Source: an uncultured virus (IMG/VR IMGVR_UViG_2663763079_000004) (Duplodnaviria; Heunggongvirae; Uroviricota; Caudoviricetes). Taken from it: a DNA stretch of 64,000 bases. Location of the stretch: positions 1 through 64,000 of the IMG/VR virus record IMGVR_UViG_2663763079_000004; one strand, 5' to 3'. The notes under the pieces are model-generated. The model was given only the letters and a program-made list of their open reading frames with translations. It did not search any database and had not been told where the DNA came from. The stretch's first letter is position 1; every line of letters begins with the position of its first letter. Below, piece by piece: positions 1,835-19,789 of this stretch. The position numbers and the translations under genes are program-made.

Positions 1835-2300
1835 CATTGGTCAAAACTCGATTCCGGAAAGCTTTGGTCGGCTGACCGGGTACTTAACCCGCCTTGTGCG
1901 GGTTTTGTGCTTTATGGGGCTGGCGAATCGCCCCGCAGCAGCTGCGATACGCGAACGTCGTCAAGCGCTCGCAGGATAGGCTCAAAAGTTTTATGGGCTG
2001 GCAGTTTAGATACCGCAGTGATCACTTCTGTAACGGTGATGTCATCACCGCGGGGGCTATAACCACCACCTGGGCCACGCTGTGAAATTACCAGGTTACC
2101 CGCCCGCAGCTTTTTGAAGATCTGCTCAAGGTATGAAGTAGACAGCTTTGACTCTTTACTGATGGCCGTCAGTGAAACAGGCGAGCCGTCATAGAGCTTA
2201 TTCAAAGTGGCGGCGGCCTGGACAGATGCCAGAACGCGTTTCATTCCAAATTCCATAATCACTTCTCCGGCCGTAATGGCCATTGGTCAAAACTCGATTC
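1835..2300. repeat. 20-bp direct repeats CATTGGTCAAAACTCGATTC bracketing the Rrf2 gene
   Basis: Identical copies at 1835-1854 and 2281-2300. Confidence 0.9.
1912..2256 (-). CDS. Rrf2-family winged-HTH regulator
   Basis: SYLEQIFKKLRAGNLVISQRGPGGGY signature; no Fe-S cysteines. Confidence 0.85.
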   Translation of the reverse strand: MEFGMKRVLASVQAAATLNKLYDGSPVSLTAISKESKLSTSYLEQIFKKLRAGNLVISQRGPGGGYSPRGDDITVTEVITAVSKLPAHKTFEPILRALDDVRVSQLLRGDSPAP

Positions 2301-2493
2301 AAAAACTCACTGCAGGCTGTTGGTCGTCAGCCATTTTTTGTGCATTTCGGTAGGGGAGGCACTGGCCCTGTACTTTTTGTTCATCGGCGTTGCTGTTGCA
2401 ACTGGCCTCTGATGGATAAACACCGATCAGAACATCAGAGCATTCACCAGTGAGAGCACATACGCTGATGACAAGGGCAAACAGGGTATTCAT
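2299..2493 (-). CDS. DUF1482 / YdfD-like protein
   Basis: 64 aa, hydrophobic N-terminus, conserved Cys pattern ending GQCLP, pL-operon position. Confidence 0.7.
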   Translation of the reverse strand: MNTLFALVISVCALTGECSDVLIGVYPSEASCNSNADEQKVQGQCLPYRNAQKMADDQQPAVSF

Positions 2494-2612
2494 GCCTCAG
2501 CCTCAGGGTTTCCTTTCTGCGCCAGCAAGTAACACAGCTGGCGTAGTCTCACCTCGAACCAGTTCAGGTGGGTCGCCTGGTTGCCGGTAGGTACTCGGGC
2601 AAAATCCTTCAT
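2490..2612 (-). CDS. YdaF-like 40-aa prophage protein
   Basis: Manual translation MKDFARVPTGNQATHLNWFEVRLRQLCYLLAQKGNPEAEA; GGAG RBS; ATGA overlap with next gene. Confidence 0.7.
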   Translation of the reverse strand: MKDFARVPTGNQATHLNWFEVRLRQLCYLLAQKGNPEAEA

Positions 2613-2655
2613 AGTTATCTCCAGTTAACTCAGTATTAGCATGTGGTTTTGCAAT

Positions 2656-2786
2656 GCGGCGCCGGGTGCCTCCCGGTGACGGCAGCCAGTTAACAACTAC
2701 CGCCGACAACTTTTTCCCCACAACATGTGAATAACCGCCATGTTTATTTTTTAACTGTGCCGCGTGCGCATAGCCGCATTCACCGC
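2656..2786 (-). ncRNA. Structured RNA motif copy A, inside a 15-bp inverted repeat (2645-2659 / 2783-2797)
   Basis: Minus strand reads GCGGTGAAT-GCGGCTATGCGCACGC...CACCGGGAGGCACCCGGCGCCGC, same architecture as copies at 17937 and 18427. Confidence 0.6.
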
Positions 2787-2882
2787 ATTGCAAAACCTAC
2801 TAGTCGTGATGCCTGTCTTTTCACCACTTCAGGCTCGGTGGTATTCTTGGCGCTCTCACACAGCCAAATAAAAGAGAGCAAA

Positions 2883-3197
2883 ATGTCTCGTAGCCCTATA
2901 CCTGTCTTCTGGTACGAAAATCCCGCTCACTATGAAGGATTCCAAAAAATCCTTTCAGATGCTTACGTCCTTCCCTTTGACTACCACGACTGGCGTATCC
3001 GCACCGATAGCATGGTGGAGCGCTACGAAAACAGCGGTATCCAGGCTGTGAAGGTGGTAGCCAGCACTTACGATTTCATCACCTGGTGCCAGGCCCATGG
3101 ACGTGATATCAGTACCAAAAGCTGCAATGATTACGCGGTCTCCGAATCGGGCCTCCAAATCCTGCGCGACAGAGAGTTTGATTGGGGAGACGAGTAA
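2883..3197 (+). CDS. Hypothetical moron protein antisense to the pL operon
   Basis: 104-aa ORF, purine-rich RBS, upstream motif also found in prophage 2. Confidence 0.65.
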   Translation: MSRSPIPVFWYENPAHYEGFQKILSDAYVLPFDYHDWRIRTDSMVERYENSGIQAVKVVASTYDFITWCQAHGRDISTKSCNDYAVSESGLQILRDREFDWGDE

Positions 3198-7079: not shown

Positions 7080-10000
7080 TCAAACAACATTAAGTATTGA
7101 TTCAATCCTTTTTTTTGCCTGACTGGTCAGGCGCTTAATTCCAAGCGAGCGGGTCATTTCCTGTATCTTATTGTCACCTTTAATACTCAGCGCCAGTGCG
7201 CGTAATTCCTCACTAGGGATCGCGTCAACCTGGCGAATGTCGTTATCCGTGGCAGGCAAACGAAACGCATTCCAGTCAGCACGTTGCTCAGCGGACAGCC
7301 AGACGAAGTTTTCACCTGAGTGATCGGCTGCAAGGTGATAGTGTTGATCCACAATTTCCATTACGCGTTCACGTATCAGTCTGCCAGCGCGAGTGAAGCC
7401 GTGTATACGTGCGATGCGGTGCACAAGCGTTGTATCCAGAACGGGTGATTCACTTGTTACCACCGCTTCAATGAGGGTTTTAAGTGTCTCATCATATTCA
7501 GCGATATAGAATTGTTCTGCATCTGTCCTGTCGTGCCATTCCTGAAGATCGTTAACGACATACTTACCGGCATGCGCTGGCTTGTTGTTATTCTGAGAAG
7601 CTGTAGATGCATACTTCAACTCAGTGCCACCATCATCTTCGCTTACTTCGGCGGGAGGCGTGATGATAGGGTTTACTGACGTGGATATTTCTTCATCATT
7701 AGCGACAGGTGTAATTTCAGATACCAGTATGTCTTCACTGGCATCATTGGTTACGTGACCGATGACTGGCGTAATCTGCTTTTGTTTTTCTGCTTCAGCA
7801 ATCAGTGCGGCTTCCGCTGCTCTGGATTCCTCCAGCAGGCGATTTATTGCTGTATCCAGCCTGTCGAGTGCACCTTCTTTATCAATCCACCATTCAGTTG
7901 ACCAGAGGCGCAGTAATTTCCAGCCCAGGCCCTGTAGGATAGCGCTGCGGACTTTATCGCGATCGCGTGCTGTTGCTGCGCTATGGTAAGTGGCACCGTC
8001 ACATTCAACACCGACAAGATAGTCGCCAGGCTTATCCGGATGAACGATCCCCAAATCAATACGGAAACGGGATACGCCAATTTGCGGGACAACATGCCAG
8101 CCTTTTCTCCTCAGACCATTTGCTACTGCCTCTTCAAACGGTGAGTCATAACCGCCTACAGACCCACGTACTGCCTGAGAAAGAGCTTCAGGGCCGCGCT
8201 GGGCAAACTCAATAAAGTGTTTGAGGTCAGCAACCGCGCGGGCGCTGGTCCGATTAAGGTCGATGAAGGAAGGATCGAACGAGCTGAAGACCATCATTTC
8301 CTGTCGCGCACGTGTGACGGCAACATTCAGCCGGCGCCAGCCTCCCTCGCGATTAAGCGGGCCAAAATTCATCGACATTGTATTTGCGCCCGGCTCAGTC
8401 GGGCCGTACCCGATGCTAATTATGATCAAATCGCGTTCATCCCCCTGAACCGTTTCGAGGTTTTTAACCACAACAGGTTCTTCCAGTTCAGACTGGAAGA
8501 AGGGTTCAATTTCAGGGTGATGCTGTCTGGCACGGTCCAGCAGATCGCTGACTAGCTTTTGCTGTTCAGTATTCAGCGTGATAATGCCTATCGATCTGCC
8601 TGATGCAACGAACTCTTTATCAGTCAGTCGCTTCACCGTTTCAGCGACGATCGCTTCTGCCTCGACCTGATTATGACGTCCTTTCCCTTTAGAGTAGACG
8701 CCTGTAACCTTGCACCACTGGACAGCACTTTGCTTTGTTTCGGAAGCGGGGAACGTAATCAGGTTGCTGTCATAGTAGCGATGGTTGGAGAAGGTAATCA
8801 GGCTTTCATGACGGCTCCGGTAATGCCAGCTCAGGCTGTGGTTATACAGGCCGGCAGCAAGACACTCATCCAGAATGCTTTCCATATCTTCTTCAGTATC
8901 ATCGTCCGTGTCATTAGCTGCACGATTAAAGAAGCTGGTTGGCGGCATCTGGCGGGGATCACCGGCGATTACCACCTGTTTGCCACGCGCCATGGTGCCG
9001 ATAGCATCCCACGGGGCAATCTGCGATGCCTCATCGAAAATCACCAGATCAAACAAGGCTTGGTCGGAGGGCAGGAACTGGGCGACTGAAAGCGGACTCA
9101 TCAGCATGCAGGGGGCAAGTTTGGCCATGGCATCGCCCATTTCGGCTGCCATCTGGCGTACCGGTTTATGACGACGGGATTTCTGTAGTTCATGTTTAAG
9201 CAGTGCAAAACCACTCTGCTTGCTGACCTCATTTTTTGCAGGAATGACGCCACATAAACGAGCACGGATATAGCGTACTGTCAGTTTGGCCAGACGATCG
9301 GTTTGAGCACGGTAAGCCTCAATATCACTCATGTGCTCAGCCGGCACAAAATTGTGCAGCAGCGGCTCTGAATCGATCATCCACGATGCAAACCAGCGGC
9401 AATAGGCAGTTTCAAAAATCTCTGCAGCGCTTATTTCTCCTGAGTTAACATGGATCAGCGCGTTGATCACTGGCTGCAGGCCATGTGAAATCGCTTCCTC
9501 ACGTACACGGCTCCAGTCACTCCAGGCTTTAAGAGCAGACTGATGTTGCAGGATATTGAGTGCGCAGTCACGCAGTGCCGGGAGCGATGGTTTGTCCTCA
9601 GCTGGTTTTATCAGATTGCAGAAGCTAACCTGTGCATCATTGAAATTGGCGATTGCTGTGCGCAGTTTCCGAGTCAGGGCGGAGATAACACCCTGCGAAC
9701 CGAGAAGGTCATTGGCATCAATAATCAGATTTTTTACAGCAGTGCGGATCTCGACCAACTGCTGTGGCGAAGAAGCAAAACCACCAAGCGAATTGCGGAT
9801 AGATTCTGCAAGTTCCAGGGTGGTCTGCAACTGTGCAACGTTGGTATCCAGCCCAGCCCATCCCGGCAGGAATAAAGTGACAGAGTTAAGCTCGGTCAGA
9901 CGTTGCAGCAATGTCTGCAGAGTTTCAGCAATGGGGAGATCAACGGATAAGTCGGGAGCTGACGTTAGCGAGTATTGTCGGATAACTTCACCAATGACTT

Positions 10001-12971
10001 TCTTGCGGGCACTGGTCGCAAAGAACCAGAATTTTTTGTCAGCGACGTCAAGTGCGTTTCTGATCTGCGGAGCATTAACGTACTGCCAGCTGTTACCAGG
10101 GTAGGTAACTGACAGATTAGCCTTTGTCACTTCAATCTCTTTCAGGAGGTGAACGGCTTTATTCGCTGACTCTATACGGCTTGTGGCATCCGGTGCGAAC
10201 ATGAAATTCAGATCAATGCCGTAAGCTTCCGTCAATAATTCACAGAATGAAGTTAGTTGCGACAGTCTCTCGGGCTCAGTAGAGTCCAGAGTAACTCCCG
10301 TCGCCTTCAGTAATTCCTCGGTGGCGTTTTCAAGGTGATCGATGATTGCAGGCAATGAATTTGCTGCAGCAATGAGAGAAGACTGCCACCCATTGGTCCA
10401 GTCAGCCTGCGTAATGAGGTCAAAATGATCGCCGTGCTGTTTCCAGGTATCACGGTTCAGCTCCAGACGTTTTACTATCTCTCTGAACTGAGTCATCTCT
10501 GAAGAAGAATGCAAAGTCGATGCAGGCCAGCTAAAGTGCGGCGTGGCGCTACTTGCATCCCTGATAACCGTGCCCATTGCCTGATGGAGCGTTAAGCCAT
10601 TTGGCCAGCGCAGATGGAGCAAACGGACAACCTCATTGAGTTTGTCTCGCAGGTGCTGCACCTTGGCCGCTTCTTCCTTCCACTCCGAGGTGGTCAGTAG
10701 ATCACGCGCATCCCATGCCCGCTCTAGCTGTTTCAGAAAATCCATCTTGGACGTTTTGCTCGAGTGCAGTTCCAGACAAAATTCACCGAGTCCCTGAGCC
10801 TCAAGCCTGCGATAGACCACATCCAGTGCCGCTTTCTTCTCAGCAACAAAAAGTACGCGCCTTCCCAGCGCAAGGTTATGCGCGATCATATTGGCTATGG
10901 TTTGCGACTTACCGGTACCGGGGGGGCCATCCAGAACAAAATCCCTCCCTTTTGCAGAGGCTACAACGGCGGCGATTTGCGAGGAATCTGCAGGCAGCGG
11001 TAGGAAAAGATCCTGCGTATTGACGTTGTCATCGAGTTCCTCAACGTTGATGACTTCTCCGCTCTTATCCAGAACGGCATTGTCCTGGCCGCGTTCGATG
11101 AGATACTTTACCAGCGCACTTTGCATCAACTGAGGTGCCCGATCGATTAGATCTTTCCACATCAGATATTTGGCAAAAGAGAATGTGCCAATCACGACAT
11201 CACGGGTGACTTCGAAACCGGGTATGTCGCGCACAGCACGCCGTACCATATTCCAGATGCCATCCACATCAACACCACTTTCATCGGTGGGCAGATCGCC
11301 ATCGAGGCCGTTAATTGTCAGAGCAAAGTCATTATGTAGCAGTTCAAGCAGAGTAAGGTTGAAGCGGGGCTCTTCTTCCAGCAAACGCATGGTCACGCCC
11401 GAAAGTACACTTTTACGGTCAAGCTGAATCGGCAGTAGTATCAGTGGAGCTGAGTAACTTTTGGGATCATCAGCGGATTTTTTCCATTTAAGGAAGCCCA
11501 CAGCGAGGAAAAGAGTGTTGGCACCACCTTCCTCCAAATCACTTTTCGATTTTCGATAGAGGTCGATTAGGGATGACTCGAGGCGGTATTTTTCCATTGC
11601 GGAGACGACTTCACCGCGTTCCAGCGCAATCTGGGCGTATTCTTCCCGCAGGTTCTCGTTTGTGAGCTGCTGATAAAGTTCGGCATCGCGGCCTCCACTC
11701 TCTAGATCAGGGAGCGGGACAATGCGAATGCGTTTGCCTTCAGCTAGCTTATCTTCAAGATGGCCCGGATTCGCACAGATCAAACGAATGCCTTTAGCGC
11801 TTTCAGGCAGGTGTAACAGGCGGTTACGGGTGGTTAAGTCCAGAAGTTTTCGTTGCCATTGTACAAGCCGGCCCCCAGCTTCTTTTTCGCCAGCTGTTTC
11901 AATATCAATGTCAACATCAGGGAGAGAGGGTGCGTCCTCAAACCCATGAGAAATAACCTCCTCAGCATCAGGCTGTTCTTCAAGGCGAGTGACACCCAGA
12001 GCCAGTGGCCGAATTTTCTGCATCCGCGCGCGACGCGAATCAATGGCTGCGTGAAAAACATCCTCGTTAAGATACTTTAACGCTTCATCAGATGCCTGAG
12101 TAAATGAAGGCGGGTGAGCTCTGGTCGCGAGAGTTGTCTCAAATACGACCATTTCTTTTAGGTCGACACGTTTGCGCACCGCAGAGACGTCTTCTGTCAC
12201 TAGCTGCGAAAATTCCTGTGGTTGTAACCAGACGCCAGCAAACGCATGACCTTCACTGAGCATTAGCAGTGAATTCAAACCAATCTGTTCCAGTGCTGAA
12301 GCAAATAATAAGGTTGTATCCAGACAGGTCGCGACTTTTCCTTCCAGAATGATGCCTGGTGTGCGAATTTTCTGGCCATTCCGTTCAAAGCTGGCTGGGG
12401 GAAGGGCATAACTGATATTGAGGTTGCAGACAGCAGTCCAGAGAGCTGAGGTAATTTCCCAGACACGAGTTCTCGACTTGCTTTCATAACCATCAAGAGC
12501 GTCATTCTTGCCTGCACGGCGAAGGACATCAGAGGCTGCCTTGAGTACACGATCTACCGCCGGATCATTAGGAATGATAAATGAAGGGAGCAATTCAATC
12601 ATTGCGCTGCCGCCCCATTCATTTTTCGCAAGTGCCTCAAGCGAATAATGAGTAATGAAGATTTCTTCCTCACCCTGGCACAAACTTATGGTGACTTCGC
12701 AGAGTACGCTTTCGGTCAGTTCGGCGAGCCATTTGGCATTAAGTTTGACATCCCGATCCCTGATATCCAGTGAAGTACCGGGAAGCAGGCGGTCGATATT
12801 CCATTTTTTATCTTCGAGCACGGCTGGCGCGGTCCGCAGATGCAGCGTCAGATCCTGAAATGTCTCTTCGGACTCATTATGCAAGATGAGCTCACGTAAC
12901 AGCGGAACTGCATTCTGGTGTGATGTGAACCCCAGCTTGTGCGCGATACTCACCTGCGCTTTTATACCCAT
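7080..12971 (-). CDS. hheA: Hhe-type anti-phage protein: transglutaminase-like + DUF4011 + SF1 helicase + Vsr-like nuclease + DUF3320
   Basis: WQRKLLDLTTRNRLL (DUF4011); GPPGTGKS, DEASQ, GDPRQMPP, HYRS, QGDERD, RRLNVAVTRAR; DSPFE..RIDL..VECDG nuclease; AAGGAG RBS before ATG 12971. Confidence 0.85.
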   Translation of the reverse strand: MGIKAQVSIAHKLGFTSHQNAVPLLRELILHNESEETFQDLTLHLRTAPAVLEDKKWNIDRLLPGTSLDIRDRDVKLNAKWLAELTESVLCEVTISLCQGEEEIFITHYSLEALAKNEWGGSAMIELLPSFIIPNDPAVDRVLKAASDVLRRAGKNDALDGYESKSRTRVWEITSALWTAVCNLNISYALPPASFERNGQKIRTPGIILEGKVATCLDTTLLFASALEQIGLNSLLMLSEGHAFAGVWLQPQEFSQLVTEDVSAVRKRVDLKEMVVFETTLATRAHPPSFTQASDEALKYLNEDVFHAAIDSRRARMQKIRPLALGVTRLEEQPDAEEVISHGFEDAPSLPDVDIDIETAGEKEAGGRLVQWQRKLLDLTTRNRLLHLPESAKGIRLICANPGHLEDKLAEGKRIRIVPLPDLESGGRDAELYQQLTNENLREEYAQIALERGEVVSAMEKYRLESSLIDLYRKSKSDLEEGGANTLFLAVGFLKWKKSADDPKSYSAPLILLPIQLDRKSVLSGVTMRLLEEEPRFNLTLLELLHNDFALTINGLDGDLPTDESGVDVDGIWNMVRRAVRDIPGFEVTRDVVIGTFSFAKYLMWKDLIDRAPQLMQSALVKYLIERGQDNAVLDKSGEVINVEELDDNVNTQDLFLPLPADSSQIAAVVASAKGRDFVLDGPPGTGKSQTIANMIAHNLALGRRVLFVAEKKAALDVVYRRLEAQGLGEFCLELHSSKTSKMDFLKQLERAWDARDLLTTSEWKEEAAKVQHLRDKLNEVVRLLHLRWPNGLTLHQAMGTVIRDASSATPHFSWPASTLHSSSEMTQFREIVKRLELNRDTWKQHGDHFDLITQADWTNGWQSSLIAAANSLPAIIDHLENATEELLKATGVTLDSTEPERLSQLTSFCELLTEAYGIDLNFMFAPDATSRIESANKAVHLLKEIEVTKANLSVTYPGNSWQYVNAPQIRNALDVADKKFWFFATSARKKVIGEVIRQYSLTSAPDLSVDLPIAETLQTLLQRLTELNSVTLFLPGWAGLDTNVAQLQTTLELAESIRNSLGGFASSPQQLVEIRTAVKNLIIDANDLLGSQGVISALTRKLRTAIANFNDAQVSFCNLIKPAEDKPSLPALRDCALNILQHQSALKAWSDWSRVREEAISHGLQPVINALIHVNSGEISAAEIFETAYCRWFASWMIDSEPLLHNFVPAEHMSDIEAYRAQTDRLAKLTVRYIRARLCGVIPAKNEVSKQSGFALLKHELQKSRRHKPVRQMAAEMGDAMAKLAPCMLMSPLSVAQFLPSDQALFDLVIFDEASQIAPWDAIGTMARGKQVVIAGDPRQMPPTSFFNRAANDTDDDTEEDMESILDECLAAGLYNHSLSWHYRSRHESLITFSNHRYYDSNLITFPASETKQSAVQWCKVTGVYSKGKGRHNQVEAEAIVAETVKRLTDKEFVASGRSIGIITLNTEQQKLVSDLLDRARQHHPEIEPFFQSELEEPVVVKNLETVQGDERDLIIISIGYGPTEPGANTMSMNFGPLNREGGWRRLNVAVTRARQEMMVFSSFDPSFIDLNRTSARAVADLKHFIEFAQRGPEALSQAVRGSVGGYDSPFEEAVANGLRRKGWHVVPQIGVSRFRIDLGIVHPDKPGDYLVGVECDGATYHSAATARDRDKVRSAILQGLGWKLLRLWSTEWWIDKEGALDRLDTAINRLLEESRAAEAALIAEAEKQKQITPVIGHVTNDASEDILVSEITPVANDEEISTSVNPIITPPAEVSEDDGGTELKYASTASQNNNKPAHAGKYVVNDLQEWHDRTDAEQFYIAEYDETLKTLIEAVVTSESPVLDTTLVHRIARIHGFTRAGRLIRERVMEIVDQHYHLAADHSGENFVWLSAEQRADWNAFRLPATDNDIRQVDAIPSEELRALALSIKGDNKIQEMTRSLGIKRLTSQAKKRIESILNVV

Positions 12972-13439
12972 GAAACTAGTTCTCCTTAAGAGGAAATCAC
13001 TCAAATATGCACAGTAGTGCTGACGACAGGAGACGCATTGAACAGGCAGAAAGCATCAGCAATTTGATTGCTCTGGCGGCGAGTATCAGAACAGGCGCGC
13101 AAGTACAGAAAGCATCATTCGCGGATTAGGTTGGGGGCGAAAGGTAGTGATTGTAAAAATCAATGCACGCTTCCTCTACCGTCAAGAGGTCGTCCCTAAG
13201 AATCATCTTAGTATTTTGCTAACATTAAAGTATAACGCGAACTTGATCTATAGATTAGGTCAGCCCAGTAATCTGAGGTGGGATAGCAATTTCAGAAAGA
13301 TTTATGTTTTTGATAAATATATTTTTTTTCTTTCATCCCACGATTCACTTGTAATGATGAACAACAAAAAAAAACAAGAAAAGATGATGTTCGATATAAT
13401 ATTTTGAAAAATTCCTGGATAACAATTGAATATATCTCT

Positions 13440-14765: not shown

Positions 14766-15023
14766 GTGAGTAAAAAACAAGAAATGCCGAACACCGGCTA
14801 TGCAATTATCAGATGCGACGATGGGGTGATCGTTGCTCGTCTTACATCCTTTCCTGTGTGTGAGCGCGCTTTAATGTACCGGCGCGGCGACACTGTTTCG
14901 TTTATGCCTTTGCAGCCGGATGAGATAGTGGGGACTCTCTCTCTTTTTTCACAGATGATTGAAAAGGCTAGGTCTGGAGTTGGTTACCAGGTTCCCCCTG
15001 GTTCTGTTACAATCCCGTCATAG
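14766..15023 (+). CDS. Hypothetical protein, candidate SOS-induced antirepressor
   Basis: 85 aa with GAGGA RBS directly after dinI; function inferred from context only. Confidence 0.55.
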   Translation: MSKKQEMPNTGYAIIRCDDGVIVARLTSFPVCERALMYRRGDTVSFMPLQPDEIVGTLSLFSQMIEKARSGVGYQVPPGSVTIPS

Positions 15024-15063
15024 GCCTGAACAACCTATACCTGCTGCGTCACGGAGAGAAGCC

Positions 15064-15456
15064 ATGACGCAAACAACCGAAGTATCAAAATCCCCTCTGA
15101 CTGGTGCTCCTTCAACGAGCGCCGGTTTACTCTCGTCTTCGAAACTCACTTTTCGACAGCAGGAAGTTTTCGATCTGCTGGTGGCCTACATCAATCAGCA
15201 TGGCTACCCACCTACGCTATCTGAGCTGGCCGATATGCTCGGCGTTAGCTCGTCTAATGCTGTCCTGTTGCATCTGCGTGCGTTAGAGAGAAAAAATTTC
15301 ATAAAACTCTCTCGCCGTGTCTCCAGAGGAATTTCCATCGTCGGGCGAAAGGAGCCTATGCTCGCCGTGCAGCTGCTGCAGGAAATGATCGCTGAAGAAC
15401 CCGGCGCGCGTGAAAGAGCGATTGAGTTTTTGCGACTGTTCGGTGATCAGCCATGA
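15064..15456 (+). CDS. LexA-like DNA-binding domain protein without peptidase
   Basis: LTFRQQEVFDLL..HGYPPTLSELA..HLRALERK..SRGI matches the LexA N-terminal domain. Confidence 0.8.
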   Translation: MTQTTEVSKSPLTGAPSTSAGLLSSSKLTFRQQEVFDLLVAYINQHGYPPTLSELADMLGVSSSNAVLLHLRALERKNFIKLSRRVSRGISIVGRKEPMLAVQLLQEMIAEEPGARERAIEFLRLFGDQP

Positions 15457-16703: not shown

Positions 16704-17306
16704 ATGACACCACGTCAACGCCGTCTACACCGTGCAGGATTAGAAACAGTGGCCGCCGCCCCGCGCAAAAGCTGGCTGGGCCGATTCACTCCCCTTAATG
16801 GCATTCAGTCCGCCTGGATAAAATCTCTGCTTACTGTATGGGGAGAAGGTATGAGAGGAGGTGCGGCCCCTCGCAAACCATCAGGACATTCATGCTGGCG
16901 AGGTATGAAGGGTGATCACTGGTCAGATAGAGCATTAGAGCGCTTTACGGCAGCAATTGAGCAGGCAAGGAGTGAAGGCTATCGCGGGCGGCAGGCACTA
17001 AGCAGGGCGCATGCCATTTTGTGGCCAAAACCTGCAACTGTGGCCATTGACGCTGCGATCACTGAGGATGATGTTGAATTTGTTGAACGATGTGTACTGG
17101 CGATATTTGAAACGGGTGATCCTGTTTATCTCGTTGGCGTTAACTATTACACCACCCGCAAAAAAATCTCAGACATAACACGGGAAATACAGCTGGTGGC
17201 GCCATGGTTAACAGACAGTGAGGCCCGGAAAAGAGTGCGCTGGTGTCTTGAAATATTCAGAGCAAAAGCTTTCCTTTCTGTTCATAAGGCGATTCATGCG
17301 GATTAG
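16704..17306 (+). CDS. Late antiterminator Q-like protein (DUF1133)
   Basis: QSAWIKSLLTVWG motif; position before late promoter and lysis genes. Confidence 0.7.
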   Translation: MTPRQRRLHRAGLETVAAAPRKSWLGRFTPLNGIQSAWIKSLLTVWGEGMRGGAAPRKPSGHSCWRGMKGDHWSDRALERFTAAIEQARSEGYRGRQALSRAHAILWPKPATVAIDAAITEDDVEFVERCVLAIFETGDPVYLVGVNYYTTRKKISDITREIQLVAPWLTDSEARKRVRWCLEIFRAKAFLSVHKAIHAD

Positions 17307-17426
17307 CAAAAAGTGCTATGTTGACTTTTTGGTATTGAAAATGGGCCAGAAAGTTAGATAATCCCTTCATGCTTGGCAGAGCTGCGCCACTCGGCAGCGA
17401 CAAAAAGCGACAATCTGAATATAACG

Positions 17427-17452
17427 AAGACCCCGCCCGTGCGGGGTTTTTG
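17427..17452 (+). terminator. tR'-like intrinsic terminator
   Basis: ACCCCGC-CCGT-GCGGGGT followed by a T-run, downstream of TTGAAA..GATAAT (17335-17362). Confidence 0.75.
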
Positions 17453-17460
17453 CTTTCCGG

Positions 17461-17514
17461 CGATACGACAGGGGTATTCGCGAGATGCGCTGCATCAATA
17501 CCCCTGTCATATCG
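17461..17514. repeat. 18-bp inverted repeat / long hairpin
   Basis: CGATACGACAGGGGTATT (17461-17478) vs AATACCCCTGTCATATCG (17497-17514), one mismatch. Confidence 0.8.
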
Positions 17515-17549
17515 TCGTATTGCATACGCAATCTCACATGCTTCAGCAT

Positions 17550-17753
17550 TCACCGAGGATTTTTAATGATTTTTTTGAAGATCTCTAGGGCTTCGGTTGT
17601 TAACTGATCATGTTCGATAAAGTAACTGTCACATGCTGCCTACTTTTGAGCAGGGGATAGATTAGGGTTGCTTGTTAATTCAGCGGTTTTAGCTGCTATT
17701 TCTGCCAAACGTTCAAAAATCTCTGAAATTCTTTGGTTATCAGTAGATAGCAT
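17550..17753 (-). pseudogene. 67-codon moron gene with internal TAG
   Basis: GAGG RBS; MLSTDNQRISEIFERLAE...SPAQK*AACDSYF...KNPR; stop at 17640-17642. Confidence 0.65.
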
Positions 17754-17936
17754 TTTACTTACCTCGTATTTACCTGATATCAGTGGGTGACTGCATTGAG
17801 TCAGGGCTTTGCAATAGCTTCAAGTATCAGAATGCATACAATTTAAGTGGGCTGTTGCTGGCTTATATTATGGCAGAGGCGCTGGCGGTATGGTCAGATA
17901 TTGACACTTTGAATGTTTGCATCCTAAATTATTGAT

Positions 17937-18045
17937 GTGGTGAATCCCCCTATGCGGAGGGGCGACCAGTCAGTTACAGAAACCTGTAAATGCAGCGCGG
18001 GCCATGCCGACTGGGGCATGCTCACCGGGAGGCACCCGGCACCAC
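17937..18045 (+). ncRNA. Structured RNA motif copy B
   Basis: GTGGTG/CACCAC closing stem, CCCCT-ATGCGG-AGGGG hairpin, ACCGGGAGGCACCCGG hairpin; TTGACA at 17901. Confidence 0.65.
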
Positions 18046-18426
18046 ACTGTCACTAAGCATATTGAATATTTCATAGTGGGTTTACTTTTGCGGTTGCTCT
18101 GCTATGTTTATAGAACGTAAAGGCAAAAGTGAATGCTTCCTGGTAAATCGGTAGCTCGGACTATTAGGTGCACCTTCCTTTCGTTACAGCCTTGGTTGCC
18201 AATTTTCTTCCCGCTTCTCTGGCGGGTTTTTTTTGCTCGTAATCTGCCCAAATAAATCATCAAAACAAGGAAGGCGATGGATTCATTTGCAGGAACTCCT
18301 TTCCCCTTCAACGGAGTGAGGCTCAAAGCAATAAGAAGCGGAACAGAAGGATGCTTTACGCCGAAAAATTAGGTCATAGCGACGTTTGGCATTGAAGAGA
18401 CGTTATTGAGATGTTAAGTTTTATGG

Positions 18427-18537
18427 GTGGTGAATCCCCCTGAGCGGAGGGGCGTAAACAGTATTGTTTTATTGCTAAACCGAATGCGCGAGTCATGGTG
18501 GCTGACCAAAGGCTTACCGGGAGGCACCCGGCACCAC
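18427..18537 (+). ncRNA. Structured RNA motif copy C
   Basis: Same arms as copy B with a different middle; TTGAAG..TAAGTT promoter-like sequence just upstream. Confidence 0.65.
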
Positions 18538-18729
18538 AACTTCACCTCAAGCCCACGTTAACGCGTAGGCTGTTCTTTTCCAGCGGATCTATTCAAAGGC
18601 TGCGCATTTGCGTGGCCTTTTTCATTTCAGGCTCACGGGAATCATCATCGATACGGCTCGTTGTTAAATCAGCCCGATGGGCCTGACCCCCTACACGCAC
18701 AAAGCACCCCGTTAATCCGGAGGTGGAGT

Positions 18730-18945
18730 ATGTATCGAATGGACAAGCTAACAACAGGTATTGCCTACGGAACGTCCGCAGGTAACGCGGGGTTCTGGAT
18801 GTTGCAATTGCTCGACAAAGTATCCCCATCCCAGTGGGCCGCTATTGGTGTTCTGGGAAGTCTGGTATTTGGCTTGCTGACATACCTGACGAATCTGTAT
18901 TTCAAAATTAAAGAAGACCGGCGAAAAGCTGTGCGAGGTGAATAA
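18730..18945 (+). CDS. Pinholin, phage 21 S-like, dual start
   Basis: [14 protein letters not shown]...two TM segments...KIKEDRRKA; ATGs at 18730 and 18739. Confidence 0.9.
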
Positions 18946-19442
18946 TGTCTCCGACACTACGTAAAAGCGTTCTTGCTGCAGTCGGCGGTGGAGCCTTTGC
19001 GATTGCCTCTGCACTCATTACTGGCCCGACGGGTAATGATGGGCTTGAGGGAGTGCGATACGACCCTTATCAGGATGTGGTAGGTGTCTGGACGGTTTGC
19101 TACGGCCACACAGGTAAAGACATCATGCTCGGCAAAACCTATACCGAGGCAGAGTGTCGGGCGCTACTAAATAAAGACCTGAATACCGTCGCCAGGCAGA
19201 TCAACCCTTACATCAAAAAACCGATCCCAGAAACTATGCGTGGGGCTTTGTACTCGTTCGCCTATAACGTCGGAACTGGTAACTTCCAGACCTCCACACT
19301 GCTTCGCAAAATCAACCAGGGTGACCCTAAAGGAGCGTGCGATCAACTGCTCCGCTGGACCTATGCCAAAGGTAAGCAGTGGAAAGGACTTATTACCCGG
19401 AGGGAAGTTGAGCGTGAAGTTTGTTTATGGGAGCAAAGATGA
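18945..19442 (+). CDS. SAR endolysin (GH24 lysozyme)
   Basis: Gly/Ala-rich SAR segment, then [19 protein letters not shown]. Confidence 0.93.
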
Positions 19443-19789
19443 GTCGCTTAACCGCCGTTATCATCGCTATAACAATCCTGCTGGCCTCTAACGTGATTTC
19501 GTGGCGCTCAGGCTGGAGTTCTCACGCTGATCACATCAATGCTCAAGCTTCAAAGAAGAGAGAGAAGGCCGAGAGTACCATTAAGCCTGTAGAGGAAAAG
19601 GCCGCTACTGCTAACGAAGCGGGTAAGGTCATCTACAAAACAATAACCCGTGACGTGGTGAAATATGTTCAGTCTCCGAATCGTATTGTATGCAGGTTTG
19701 ATGATGATGCTGTGCAGCTGCGTCAGCGCGCCATCGATGCTGCCAACTCCATCCCCGGATTTGATGAGCCCGCCGTGCAAAGCAAGTGA
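19439..19789 (+). CDS. i-spanin (Rz-like)
   Basis: N-terminal TM helix, follows endolysin. Confidence 0.75.

Follow-up and report, generated by a model that had tools for sequence, protein, structure and literature searches.

The first 64,000 nucleotides of a 96.9-kb IMG/VR provirus record (IMGVR_UViG_2663763079_000004, an uncultured virus of the Caudoviricetes), hereafter the window, carry two repeated units on the plus strand, at 17937-18047 (unit 1) and 18427-18539 (unit 2), which lie between a Q-like gene (16704-17306) and the lysis genes that begin at 18731. The units have in common the 5′ arm GTGGTGAATCCCCCT-NN-GCGGAGGGGCG, the 3′ arm ACCGGGAGGCACCCGGCACCAC and the interior motif AATGC..GCG.G.CATG, and both fold as a closing stem around four hairpins. 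An earlier reading, made from the sequence only, had described the pair as repeated RNAs with shared arms that close a multi-stem fold between Q and the lysis genes, and the units, the fold and their placement were all found as described. It had added that the family might already be in Rfam, and the Rfam scan it called for confirmed this caveat of prior cataloguing, as the whole window yielded exactly two matches above the gathering cut-off (47 bits), both to STnc100 (RF02076), namely unit 1 with 78.6 bits (17904-18089) and unit 2 with 72.8 bits (18398-18577). A permissive scan of 17300-18740 at E ≤ 10 returned, beyond STnc100, sub-threshold noise only. One more match, at 81246-81375 of the record and thus outside the window (22.5 bits), was rejected as spurious, having no arms and lying in the 3′ end of an open reading frame (ORF) plus a terminator. 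Units 1 and 2 are genuine members of the catalogued prophage small-RNA (sRNA) family STnc100, relatives of PasD and EcOnc27. Their parts are the following.

17901-17906 with 17924-17929 or 17925-17930, plus strand: unit 1 promoter, -35 TTGACA and -10 CTAAAT or TAAATT (scan, TTGACA-18-TAAATT, 10/12)
17937-18045, plus strand: unit 1, 5′ structured domain (Rfam STnc100, fold, covariation)
17937-17942 and 18040-18045, plus strand: unit 1, closing helix P0 (fold, covariation)
17946-17950 and 17956-17957 with 17959-17961, plus strand: unit 1, helix P1, A17958 bulged (covariation)
17966-17971 (CCAGUC) and 18009-18014 (GACUGG), plus strand: unit 1, pseudoknot (per-sequence pairing with permutation)
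17974-17979 and 17984-17989, plus strand: unit 1, helix P2 (fold)
17999-18008 and 18015-18023, plus strand: unit 1, helix P3 (fold, covariation)
18025-18029 and 18035-18039, plus strand: unit 1, helix P4 (fold)
18046-18234, plus strand: unit 1, 3′ part with a variable linker, a 31-nt hairpin motif and an intrinsic terminator
18139-18169, plus strand: the 31-nt hairpin motif CCTGGTAAATCGGTAGCTCGGACTATTAGGT in the 3′ part of unit 1
18210-18226 with a T-run to 18234, plus strand: unit 1, intrinsic terminator (terminator scan)
18392-18420, plus strand: unit 2, promoter-like site TTGAAG-17-TAAGTT (read by eye, 4/6 + 3/6; not called by the scan)
18427-18537, plus strand: unit 2, 5′ structured domain (Rfam, fold), with P0 at 18427-18432 and 18532-18537 and P4 at 18517-18521 and 18527-18531
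18538-18630, plus strand: unit 2, tail, a single-stranded linker (about 18538-18549) followed by two terminator-like hairpins (fold)
18550-18579, plus strand: unit 2, first terminator-like hairpin (in the Rfam alignment 18549-18577 corresponds to the family terminator)
18595-18620 with a T-run to 18630, plus strand: unit 2, second, stronger terminator (terminator scan), just before the holin gene

The minimum free energies of unit 1 (-48.5 kcal/mol, z = -2.51; 3 of 200 shuffles equal or better) and unit 2 (-40.0 kcal/mol, z = -1.52; 14 of 200 shuffles equal or better) stand just weakly above chance; the real support for the fold comes from Rfam and from covariation. Relatives were collected by an exact-pattern scan of viral contigs with the 5′ arm, giving at least 120 loci and 48 unique cores of 100-130 nt, and by a scan of one genome per species with a 20-mer spanning P4 and P0, giving at least 126 loci. 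The MAFFT alignment held 120 units, three from the window (a diverged third copy, described below, included) and 117 of the 119 unique genome units, from many genera; those left out were a match on a 388-nt contig of an unrelated phylum (L144) and a G+C-rich chance match (L249). Over the 120 units, pairing reaches 95.1% in P0 and 74.3% in outer P3; three P0 pairs have both partners exchanged, in 12, 15 and 32 sequences. For the structure as a whole pairing amounts to 81.0%, compared with 39-46% for partners displaced by 1-3 columns, and 0 of 500 shuffles attained its covariation score. The units thus possess the compensated closing stem and the P1, P3 and P4 helices of STnc100, and covariation of the helices refutes the neutral drift of a simple duplication, which the sequence-only reading had set against its own proposal; its view of a prophage non-coding RNA family with a constant scaffold is upheld by STnc100 membership together with helix covariation.

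The register of P1 was refined by the same alignment. With an A bulged out, the pairs C14-G29, C15-G28 and C16-G27, then the bulge, then C17-G25 and C18-G24 (unit 1 numbering from 17933) are 99.3% paired and three of the five are changed on both sides, whereas in the register of the Rfam consensus P1 is 82.0% paired and its last pair is unpaired in 62 of the 120 sequences. Covariation favours the bulged-A register over that of the consensus. Other parts hardly change at all: the junctions, the P1 loop and P4 are nearly invariant across genera. P4 is invariant in the 120 aligned units, but there it served as the search pattern; CCGGG-AGGCA-CCCGG was likewise found in 48 of the 48 unique viral cores, where the pattern had left the P4 loop free, and two bases of the P1 loop, G22 and C23, do not vary in any of the 120 units, which had been selected on P4 alone.

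The folded core also contains a pseudoknot. In unit 1 the strand after P1 (CCAGUC) is complementary to the loop of P3 (GACUGG), and other types of the family bring matching strand pairs of their own, namely AUCAGCA/UGCUGAU, CUGGUG[U/A/C]/[A/U/G]CACCGG, UGCGGC/GCCGCA, CCAAC/GUUGG, UUCCAGCA/UGCUGGAG and UUCCAGAA/UUCUGGAG. A column-by-column count on the MAFFT alignment gives 47% pairing for the pseudoknot, but it fails, since the loops vary in length and shift the register. The pseudoknot was therefore scored per sequence, by the best uninterrupted helix that the P3 hairpin can form with the 12-13 nt following P1, with partners permuted among classes as control. In the genome set a helix of at least 5 bp is formed in 114 of 120 units and one of at least 6 bp in 94, with 81 distinct 5′ strands; over its 40 classes cognate partners average 6.22 and shuffled ones 4.71 (standard deviation 0.16), and 0 of 2000 permutations come up to the cognate value. 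The viral set (41 unique combinations in 14 classes) gives 5.93 for cognate partners against 4.53 for the 182 non-cognate pairs, and 0 of 10000 permutations. The 3′ strand lies mostly at one site, in the middle of the P3 hairpin. No pseudoknot is drawn in the Rfam consensus line for STnc100, the word does not occur in the preprint on PasD and STnc100 (10.64898/2026.05.13.724894), and in searchable full text no pseudoknot of STnc100 or PasD2 was found, the term occurring there for other RNAs only. The shared folded core therefore differs from the Rfam consensus both in the bulged A of P1 and in holding a strongly co-varying pseudoknot that is apparently undescribed in print, which implies a globular 5′ domain, unusual among Hfq sRNAs.

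These pairings change how the variable middle of the units is to be understood. About 46 of the 60 interior bases of unit 1 sit in P2, P3 or the pseudoknot, so that most differences between units and between relatives are compensated; least constrained is P2, absent or reduced to a few bases in some units and tens of bases long in others. The proposal of the sequence-only reading that a middle of about 55-60 nt serves as a free targeting segment thus did not survive, and what distinguishes the interiors of units 1 and 2 is for the most part structural drift with compensation, not guide sequence. C4 antisense RNAs of phages P1 and P7 have a conserved scaffold with variable recognition loops. 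The likeness to them is one of concept only, as C4 presents its variable loops to the target whereas the interior here is internally paired, and no C4 match was obtained at the gathering cut-off in the whole window nor at E ≤ 10 in 2300-3100 and 17300-18740.

The exchangeable module is the 3′ tail, as follows from the shuffling of interiors and tails among relatives. In 241 unique units, 94 interior clusters and 109 tail clusters (first 50 nt) occur in 132 combinations; 16 tail clusters are joined to two or more interiors and 19 interiors to two or more tails, the interior of unit 1 being paired with 7 tail clusters and that of unit 2 with 4. Such exchange between 5′ domain and 3′ tail points to the tail as the part in which seeds would best be sought.

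The tail of unit 1 is further marked by its 31-nt motif, which is nearly invariant in 33 unique relatives, and in over 100 viral contigs, while its flanks vary in the relatives. When viral contigs were scanned with the motif first, all 115 occurrences with enough upstream DNA follow an STnc100 scaffold; the distance from a P4 conforming to the pattern is 90-103 nt in 109 of them and 42 nt in one, and in the other 5 the P4 has one mismatch. It is absent after E. coli-type interiors (0/23, 0/10 and 0/8) and is a feature of the Klebsiella lineage. Derivation of the motif from the tRNA-Asn of a related phage was considered and rejected, the tRNA lying beyond the last terminator and giving no alignment. 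The motif loop resembles one arm of Klebsiella repeats of the REP/BIME type and could pair with the other arm over 15 bp with one G-U. In three Klebsiella genomes the complement of the loop occurs 12, 19 and 18 times at up to 3 mismatches against 10, 17 and 13 for the reversed control, which was counted as no excess, and the clustered near-matches are intergenic repeats of the REP/BIME type, not tRNA or Rfam RNAs.

The sequence-only reading had placed a sigma70-like promoter just upstream of each unit. This holds for unit 1, which has a site scoring 10/12 whose -35 element TTGAC is kept in 32 of 33 unique unit 1-type relatives; the site of unit 2 is weak and was not called by the scan. A logo of 200 unique upstream sequences of the family has TTGAC at -35 and TAAAnT at -10 in a fixed register, 84 of the 200 passing 8/12, and the unit 2 site TTGAAG-17-TAAGTT falls in that register.

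As to transcription, 14 RNA runs each contain half or more of the words sampled from 17300-18760, and four (X1, X3, X4 and X24) were compared with the locus. The raw stranded reads of X24, from a sister copy in another strain, reach depths of 224, 427 and 94 in three bins of 17937-18083, with zero in 17300-17887 and 0.02 in 17888-17936. Their first mate is always on the minus strand, hence the RNA is, by the usual convention, plus-strand, and no loose ends occur before 17937, hence its 5′ end lies at about the first base of P0. The RNA-seq check suggested by the sequence-only reading thus detected a plus-strand RNA of a related sister copy from about 17937, and in these reads P3 shows a compensatory change, 18007 C>T together with 18016 G>A. 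Contigs of X1 have depths of 25-49 (17300-17446), 413 (17468-17959), 1930-2351 (17930-18158), 1958 (18171-18654) and 226 (18625-18760), and those of X4 of 255, then 3234 and 2315 (17981-18167), then 148, so that in two studies the locus stands 5- to 20-fold over its flanks, for unit 2 as mean contig depth only; X3 is a single flat contig, uninformative on expression. RNA contigs bridge 18016-18167 at scaffold-like depth (2351 in X1, 2315 in X4), which suggests that the scaffold and the 3′ part of unit 1 form one transcript of about 300 nt.

A third diverged copy, which the sequence-only reading had also noted, does exist, on the minus strand and with a score under the cut-off.

2648-2792, minus strand: diverged third 5′ domain (33.8 bits against STnc100, whose cut-off is 47; E = 1.6e-5 when 801 bases were searched)

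Compensatory changes preserve P1 in this copy, whose pseudoknot reaches 7 bp (CAGUUAA/UUAACUG). Its surroundings on the minus strand are int, xis and small ORFs; no terminator separates it from the first ORF (2490-2612, minus strand), and the Shine-Dalgarno sequence of that ORF is about 35 nt past the domain; no promoter-like site was found by a promoter scan near the copy. It looks like the leader of the early-left operon, and the STnc100 domain can, on this view, also sit in cis. Within the stretch 2490-2883 the copy occupies a divergent intergenic region between operons on the int/xis side and the cII/O/P side, and it runs into a 40-aa ORF assigned to phrog_22279.

Among the matches listed, family loci are mostly from Enterobacteriaceae (Klebsiella, Enterobacter, Kosakonia, Raoultella, Salmonella, Escherichia, Shigella, Trabulsiella and Superficieibacter among others), with further loci in Pantoea, Erwinia, Rahnella and one Serratia metagenome-assembled genome; matches in Streptomyces and in a metagenome-assembled genome of Planctomycetaceae were discarded as G+C-rich chance matches without the 5′ arm. 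A 5′ arm of the GGTGAAT type lies within 150 nt of P4 in 115 of the 136 P4 matches listed, and several more have variants such as GGTGGAT. Tandem sets recur: the 80 listed of at least 126 genome loci include one with three units (255 and 268 nt apart) and four with two. The two-unit arrangement of the window was seen again in only 1 of the 80 listed of at least 120 viral loci. Arrays of two or three units, 220-560 nt apart, were seen in other genera (Superficieibacter electus, L168, and loci L162, L167, L186 and L187), and one Pantoea plasmid has at least four STnc100-type units. In a related Klebsiella phage (MK448233, 2366-2989) the gene Q is followed by an isrJ match, STnc100 (85.1 bits), a terminator, tRNA-Asn and then the holin gene; the late leader, as seen in this phage, is a place that collects RNA genes.

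The units agree with STnc100 in arms, helices and promoter register, and unit 2 likewise has a terminator after a short tail, while unit 1 departs from it by a 3′ part of about 190 nt with the lineage-specific 31-nt hairpin. The host lineage here is of the Klebsiella type, in place of Salmonella or E. coli. The location in a lambdoid prophage, between the late promoter and the lysis genes, is shared with STnc100 and EcOnc27 (PMC7873438, PMC12711010). PasD is reported to share structure and ancestry with STnc100 and to lie near Q (Zhu, Shabalina, Storz; 10.64898/2026.05.13.724894), and it offers the best functional precedent, by way of the link drawn in that preprint: PasD1 and PasD2 of enteropathogenic E. 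coli (EPEC) strain E2348/69 are abundant, verified by Northern blot, dependent on Hfq for stability and engaged with many partners in RIL-seq (PMC8550237). The PasD copies are far apart (10.64898/2026.05.13.724894), in contrast to the units here, which are 490 nt apart. Strain EDL933 has 11 STnc100 copies with RNA-seq read counts, one of them confirmed by Northern blot (PMC5331693). EcOnc27/sRNA103 of enterohaemorrhagic E. coli (EHEC) overlaps STnc100 downstream of stx2 and binds Hfq, and its over-expression raises the fimZ and espA transcripts (PMC7873438, PMC12711010). Dyads of Hfq-binding sRNAs between the late promoter and the lysis genes occur in at least 8 Sakai prophages, for a reason described as unclear in a review, and the AgvB/AsxR dyads and the StxS, IsrJ and IsrK leader RNAs occupy this same Q-to-lysis niche and bind Hfq (PMC7873438). 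AgvB, AsxR and IsrJ had no match in the window in the Rfam scans.

Based on these findings, we propose, as a rather probable reading, that the units are adjacent, independently promoted STnc100 sRNA genes, carried as morons in the late-operon leader of a Klebsiella-type prophage, whose products would act in trans in association with Hfq; lysogenic expression, Hfq association and trans action are suggested by the published work on PasD and EcOnc27 relatives. Each RNA would start flush with the closing helix P0, and the five helices P0-P4 would form a compact 5′ domain locked by the pseudoknot, followed by a 3′ tail ending in an intrinsic terminator. By analogy with the relatives, the RNAs could be made in the lysogen and Hfq could be bound through the tail and terminator, an architecture compatible with such binding, and they may act on host and prophage mRNAs by base-pairing of their single-stranded parts, most likely a seed in the 3′ tail. 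The 5′ domain might then be a stabilising and/or protein-binding chassis, as a 5′ end base-paired in P0 would hinder 5′-end-dependent decay.

Several observations weigh against this proposal. Unit 2 is among the 6 of 120 units below 5 bp in the pseudoknot, with 4 bp only (CAGU 18459-18462 with GCUG 18501-18504), and its promoter is weak, at 7/12 below the threshold of the promoter scan. Promoter-like sites in 17200-18800 are at chance frequency (2 found, 2.2 expected), and the argument for the promoters therefore rests on conservation. The full unit RNAs have no complementarity longer than 12 nt to the 64-kb window, which is chance level, host targets not having been searched systematically. 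The X24 reads belong to a copy 93-99% alike and not to the window itself, and contigs cannot show RNA ends, strand or level, the repeated arms moreover adding depth. The third copy has no terminator of its own and resembles a cis-acting leader, and a simple base-pairing sRNA leaves the near-invariant P4, P1 loop and junctions unexplained.

The last point, together with the abundance of CsrA-bound PasD2 chimeras, keeps open a reading in which the 5′ domain may be a protein-binding module that recruits or titrates CsrA, Hfq or ProQ, with the 3′ tail picking targets so that the RNA guides or sponges the protein. A second preprint describes the chimera of the yjbJ 3′ untranslated region with PasD2 as the most abundant CsrA-bound one in EPEC, at about 20% of chimeric reads, and another EPEC sRNA, PasE, as guiding CsrA (bioRxiv 10.64898/2026.08.12.744399). 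The identity of the P4 stem and AGGCA loop in the unique cores, the invariance of G22 and C23, motifs of the GGAGG or GGA type at the stem-loop boundary of P1 and P4, and the shuffling of 5′ domains and tails among relatives would fit as well; the GGA motifs are, however, partly within stems, not the usual CsrA site, and part of the invariance was imposed by the search patterns, and we hold this reading to be unlikely. That the domains are instead cis-acting leaders, which stabilise or process the late and early-left transcripts or modulate their read-through, the short RNAs being by-products, is suggested by the place of the units in the leader of the late operon, after tR′ and before the holin gene, and by the third copy directly before the first early-left ORF with no terminator between. 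Yet units 1 and 2 have promoter-like sites and terminators of their own, an ordinary RNA-seq library contains the sister copy in abundance, its 5′ end being at the domain itself, the relatives in EHEC and EPEC are discrete sRNAs verified by Northern blot, and in Stx2 phages an STnc100 copy follows stx2 at 75 nt and is remote from the late promoter (PMC12370729); we consider this cis-leader reading decidedly improbable.

The idea of tRNA mimics or decoys, raised by the sequence-only reading, draws on topology only, namely five helices in the order of a class II tRNA and a 5-bp P4 that abuts P0 without a linker, as a T arm does on the acceptor stem. ARAGORN reported 0 tRNA or tmRNA genes in the window and no match of the tRNA clan or tmRNA was obtained at E ≤ 10 in 17300-18740, the P4 loop has 5 nt (AGGCA) and not the 7 of a T loop, no free CCA end follows the 3′ strand of P0, and the true tRNA-Asn of a related phage sits elsewhere and does not align; we give this idea very little credence. 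Scarcely any weight is left for a plain duplication with a neutrally drifting interior or for short ORFs, although open frames do cross both units (for example a GTG-initiated frame of 44 aa at 18427-18561). The changes in the interior are compensatory and not neutral, the core lengths of 100-130 nt differ by non-multiples of three, and units 1 and 2 do not share the frame in which their conserved 3′ arm would be read, so that a protein-coding role was rejected for reasons of length class and frame; ribosome coverage is low for most EDL933 copies (PMC5331693).

Beyond the proposal of Hfq-associated, trans-acting sRNA genes, we tentatively advance a wider idea, which we consider possible and still rather doubtful: the STnc100 5′ domain might be a portable pseudoknotted chassis, either protein-recruiting (for example CsrA or Hfq) or decay-resistant, that the temperate phages of Enterobacterales recombine with interchangeable 3′ effector tails, arrange in arrays and place before early operons as a cis leader too. 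If true, the domain would be a modular platform for RNA regulators that phages carry, and not a single sRNA family with a single seed. The finding is otherwise largely ordinary, as the family is known; what stands out is the pseudoknot, apparently undescribed, together with the correction of the P1 register and the shuffling of domains and tails, and these could help work on PasD, EcOnc27 and STnc100. The annotation is settled, in that the repeat is a pair of STnc100-family sRNA genes, and its position with respect to late promoter, terminators and lysis genes is precisely given. A statistical link between members of the family and clinical outcome in O157 has been reported (PMC12711010), and a correct structural model is therefore of some practical value.

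The gene neighbourhood of the units is that of a lambdoid prophage, with both units between the Q-like gene and the genes for holin, endolysin and spanin, and no partner protein is identifiable at the locus, as the sequence-only reading had stated. Among the nearest phage records, 46 of 57 matching are Klebsiella prophages, and none spans 80% of the 1.1-kb query. The neighbouring features are given below.

16704-17306, plus strand: Q-like late antiterminator gene (phrog_753 'anti-termination protein Q-like', E = 1.1e-54; no Pfam match)
17335-17362, plus strand: candidate late promoter TTGAAA-16-GATAAT (promoter scan, 10/12), 30 nt past the Q stop codon
17430-17447 with a T-run to 17457, plus strand: G+C-rich hairpin, intrinsic terminator (read from the sequence), about 70 nt past the promoter
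18661-18945, plus strand: holin gene ORF, probable start 18731 (PF04971, P21 holin S, E = 1.4e-34)
18945-19442, plus strand: endolysin gene (PF00959, E = 6.1e-47)
19421-19789, plus strand: Rz-like spanin gene (phrog_2536)

From its position after Q, the promoter and terminator of 17335-17457 would be a candidate short leader of the PR′-tR′ type; the terminator tool reports the palindrome at 17430-17447 for the minus strand only. A weak sub-threshold isrK match falls at 17394-17451 (16.9 bits against a cut-off of 50), a related Klebsiella phage has its isrJ match in the corresponding position, and the depth of the X1 contigs over the pair is low (25-49). Given this separate PR′-tR′-like pair, both units lie downstream of tR′; they begin 570 and 1060 nt further on and so differ from PR′-tR′ leader RNAs of the lambda 6S, StxS, IsrJ and IsrK type. 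Between tR′ and unit 1 lies a 37-aa ORF (17640-17753, minus strand) with a good Shine-Dalgarno sequence and no Pfam or PHROG match. The depth of 413 of the X1 contig at 17468-17959, against 25-49 upstream, indicates that something is expressed around this ORF, and the hairpin at 17430-17447 could also terminate its transcript.

A DUF968/HNH gene and a LexA-type repressor-like gene are found upstream of the Q-like gene. The latter, at 14959-15456 (plus strand), encodes a LexA DNA-binding domain (phrog_362, transcriptional repressor) and lies in the nin-like region upstream of Q, an unusual site for a repressor-like gene. In the early region of the prophage, a gene for a protein of 1974 aa (7080-13004, minus strand) with DUF4011, SF1-helicase, REase_MTES_1575 and DUF3320 domains matches the PADLOC systems PDC-S37 (1184.8 bits) and Hhe (601 bits), and it is therefore a candidate prophage-borne anti-phage defence gene.

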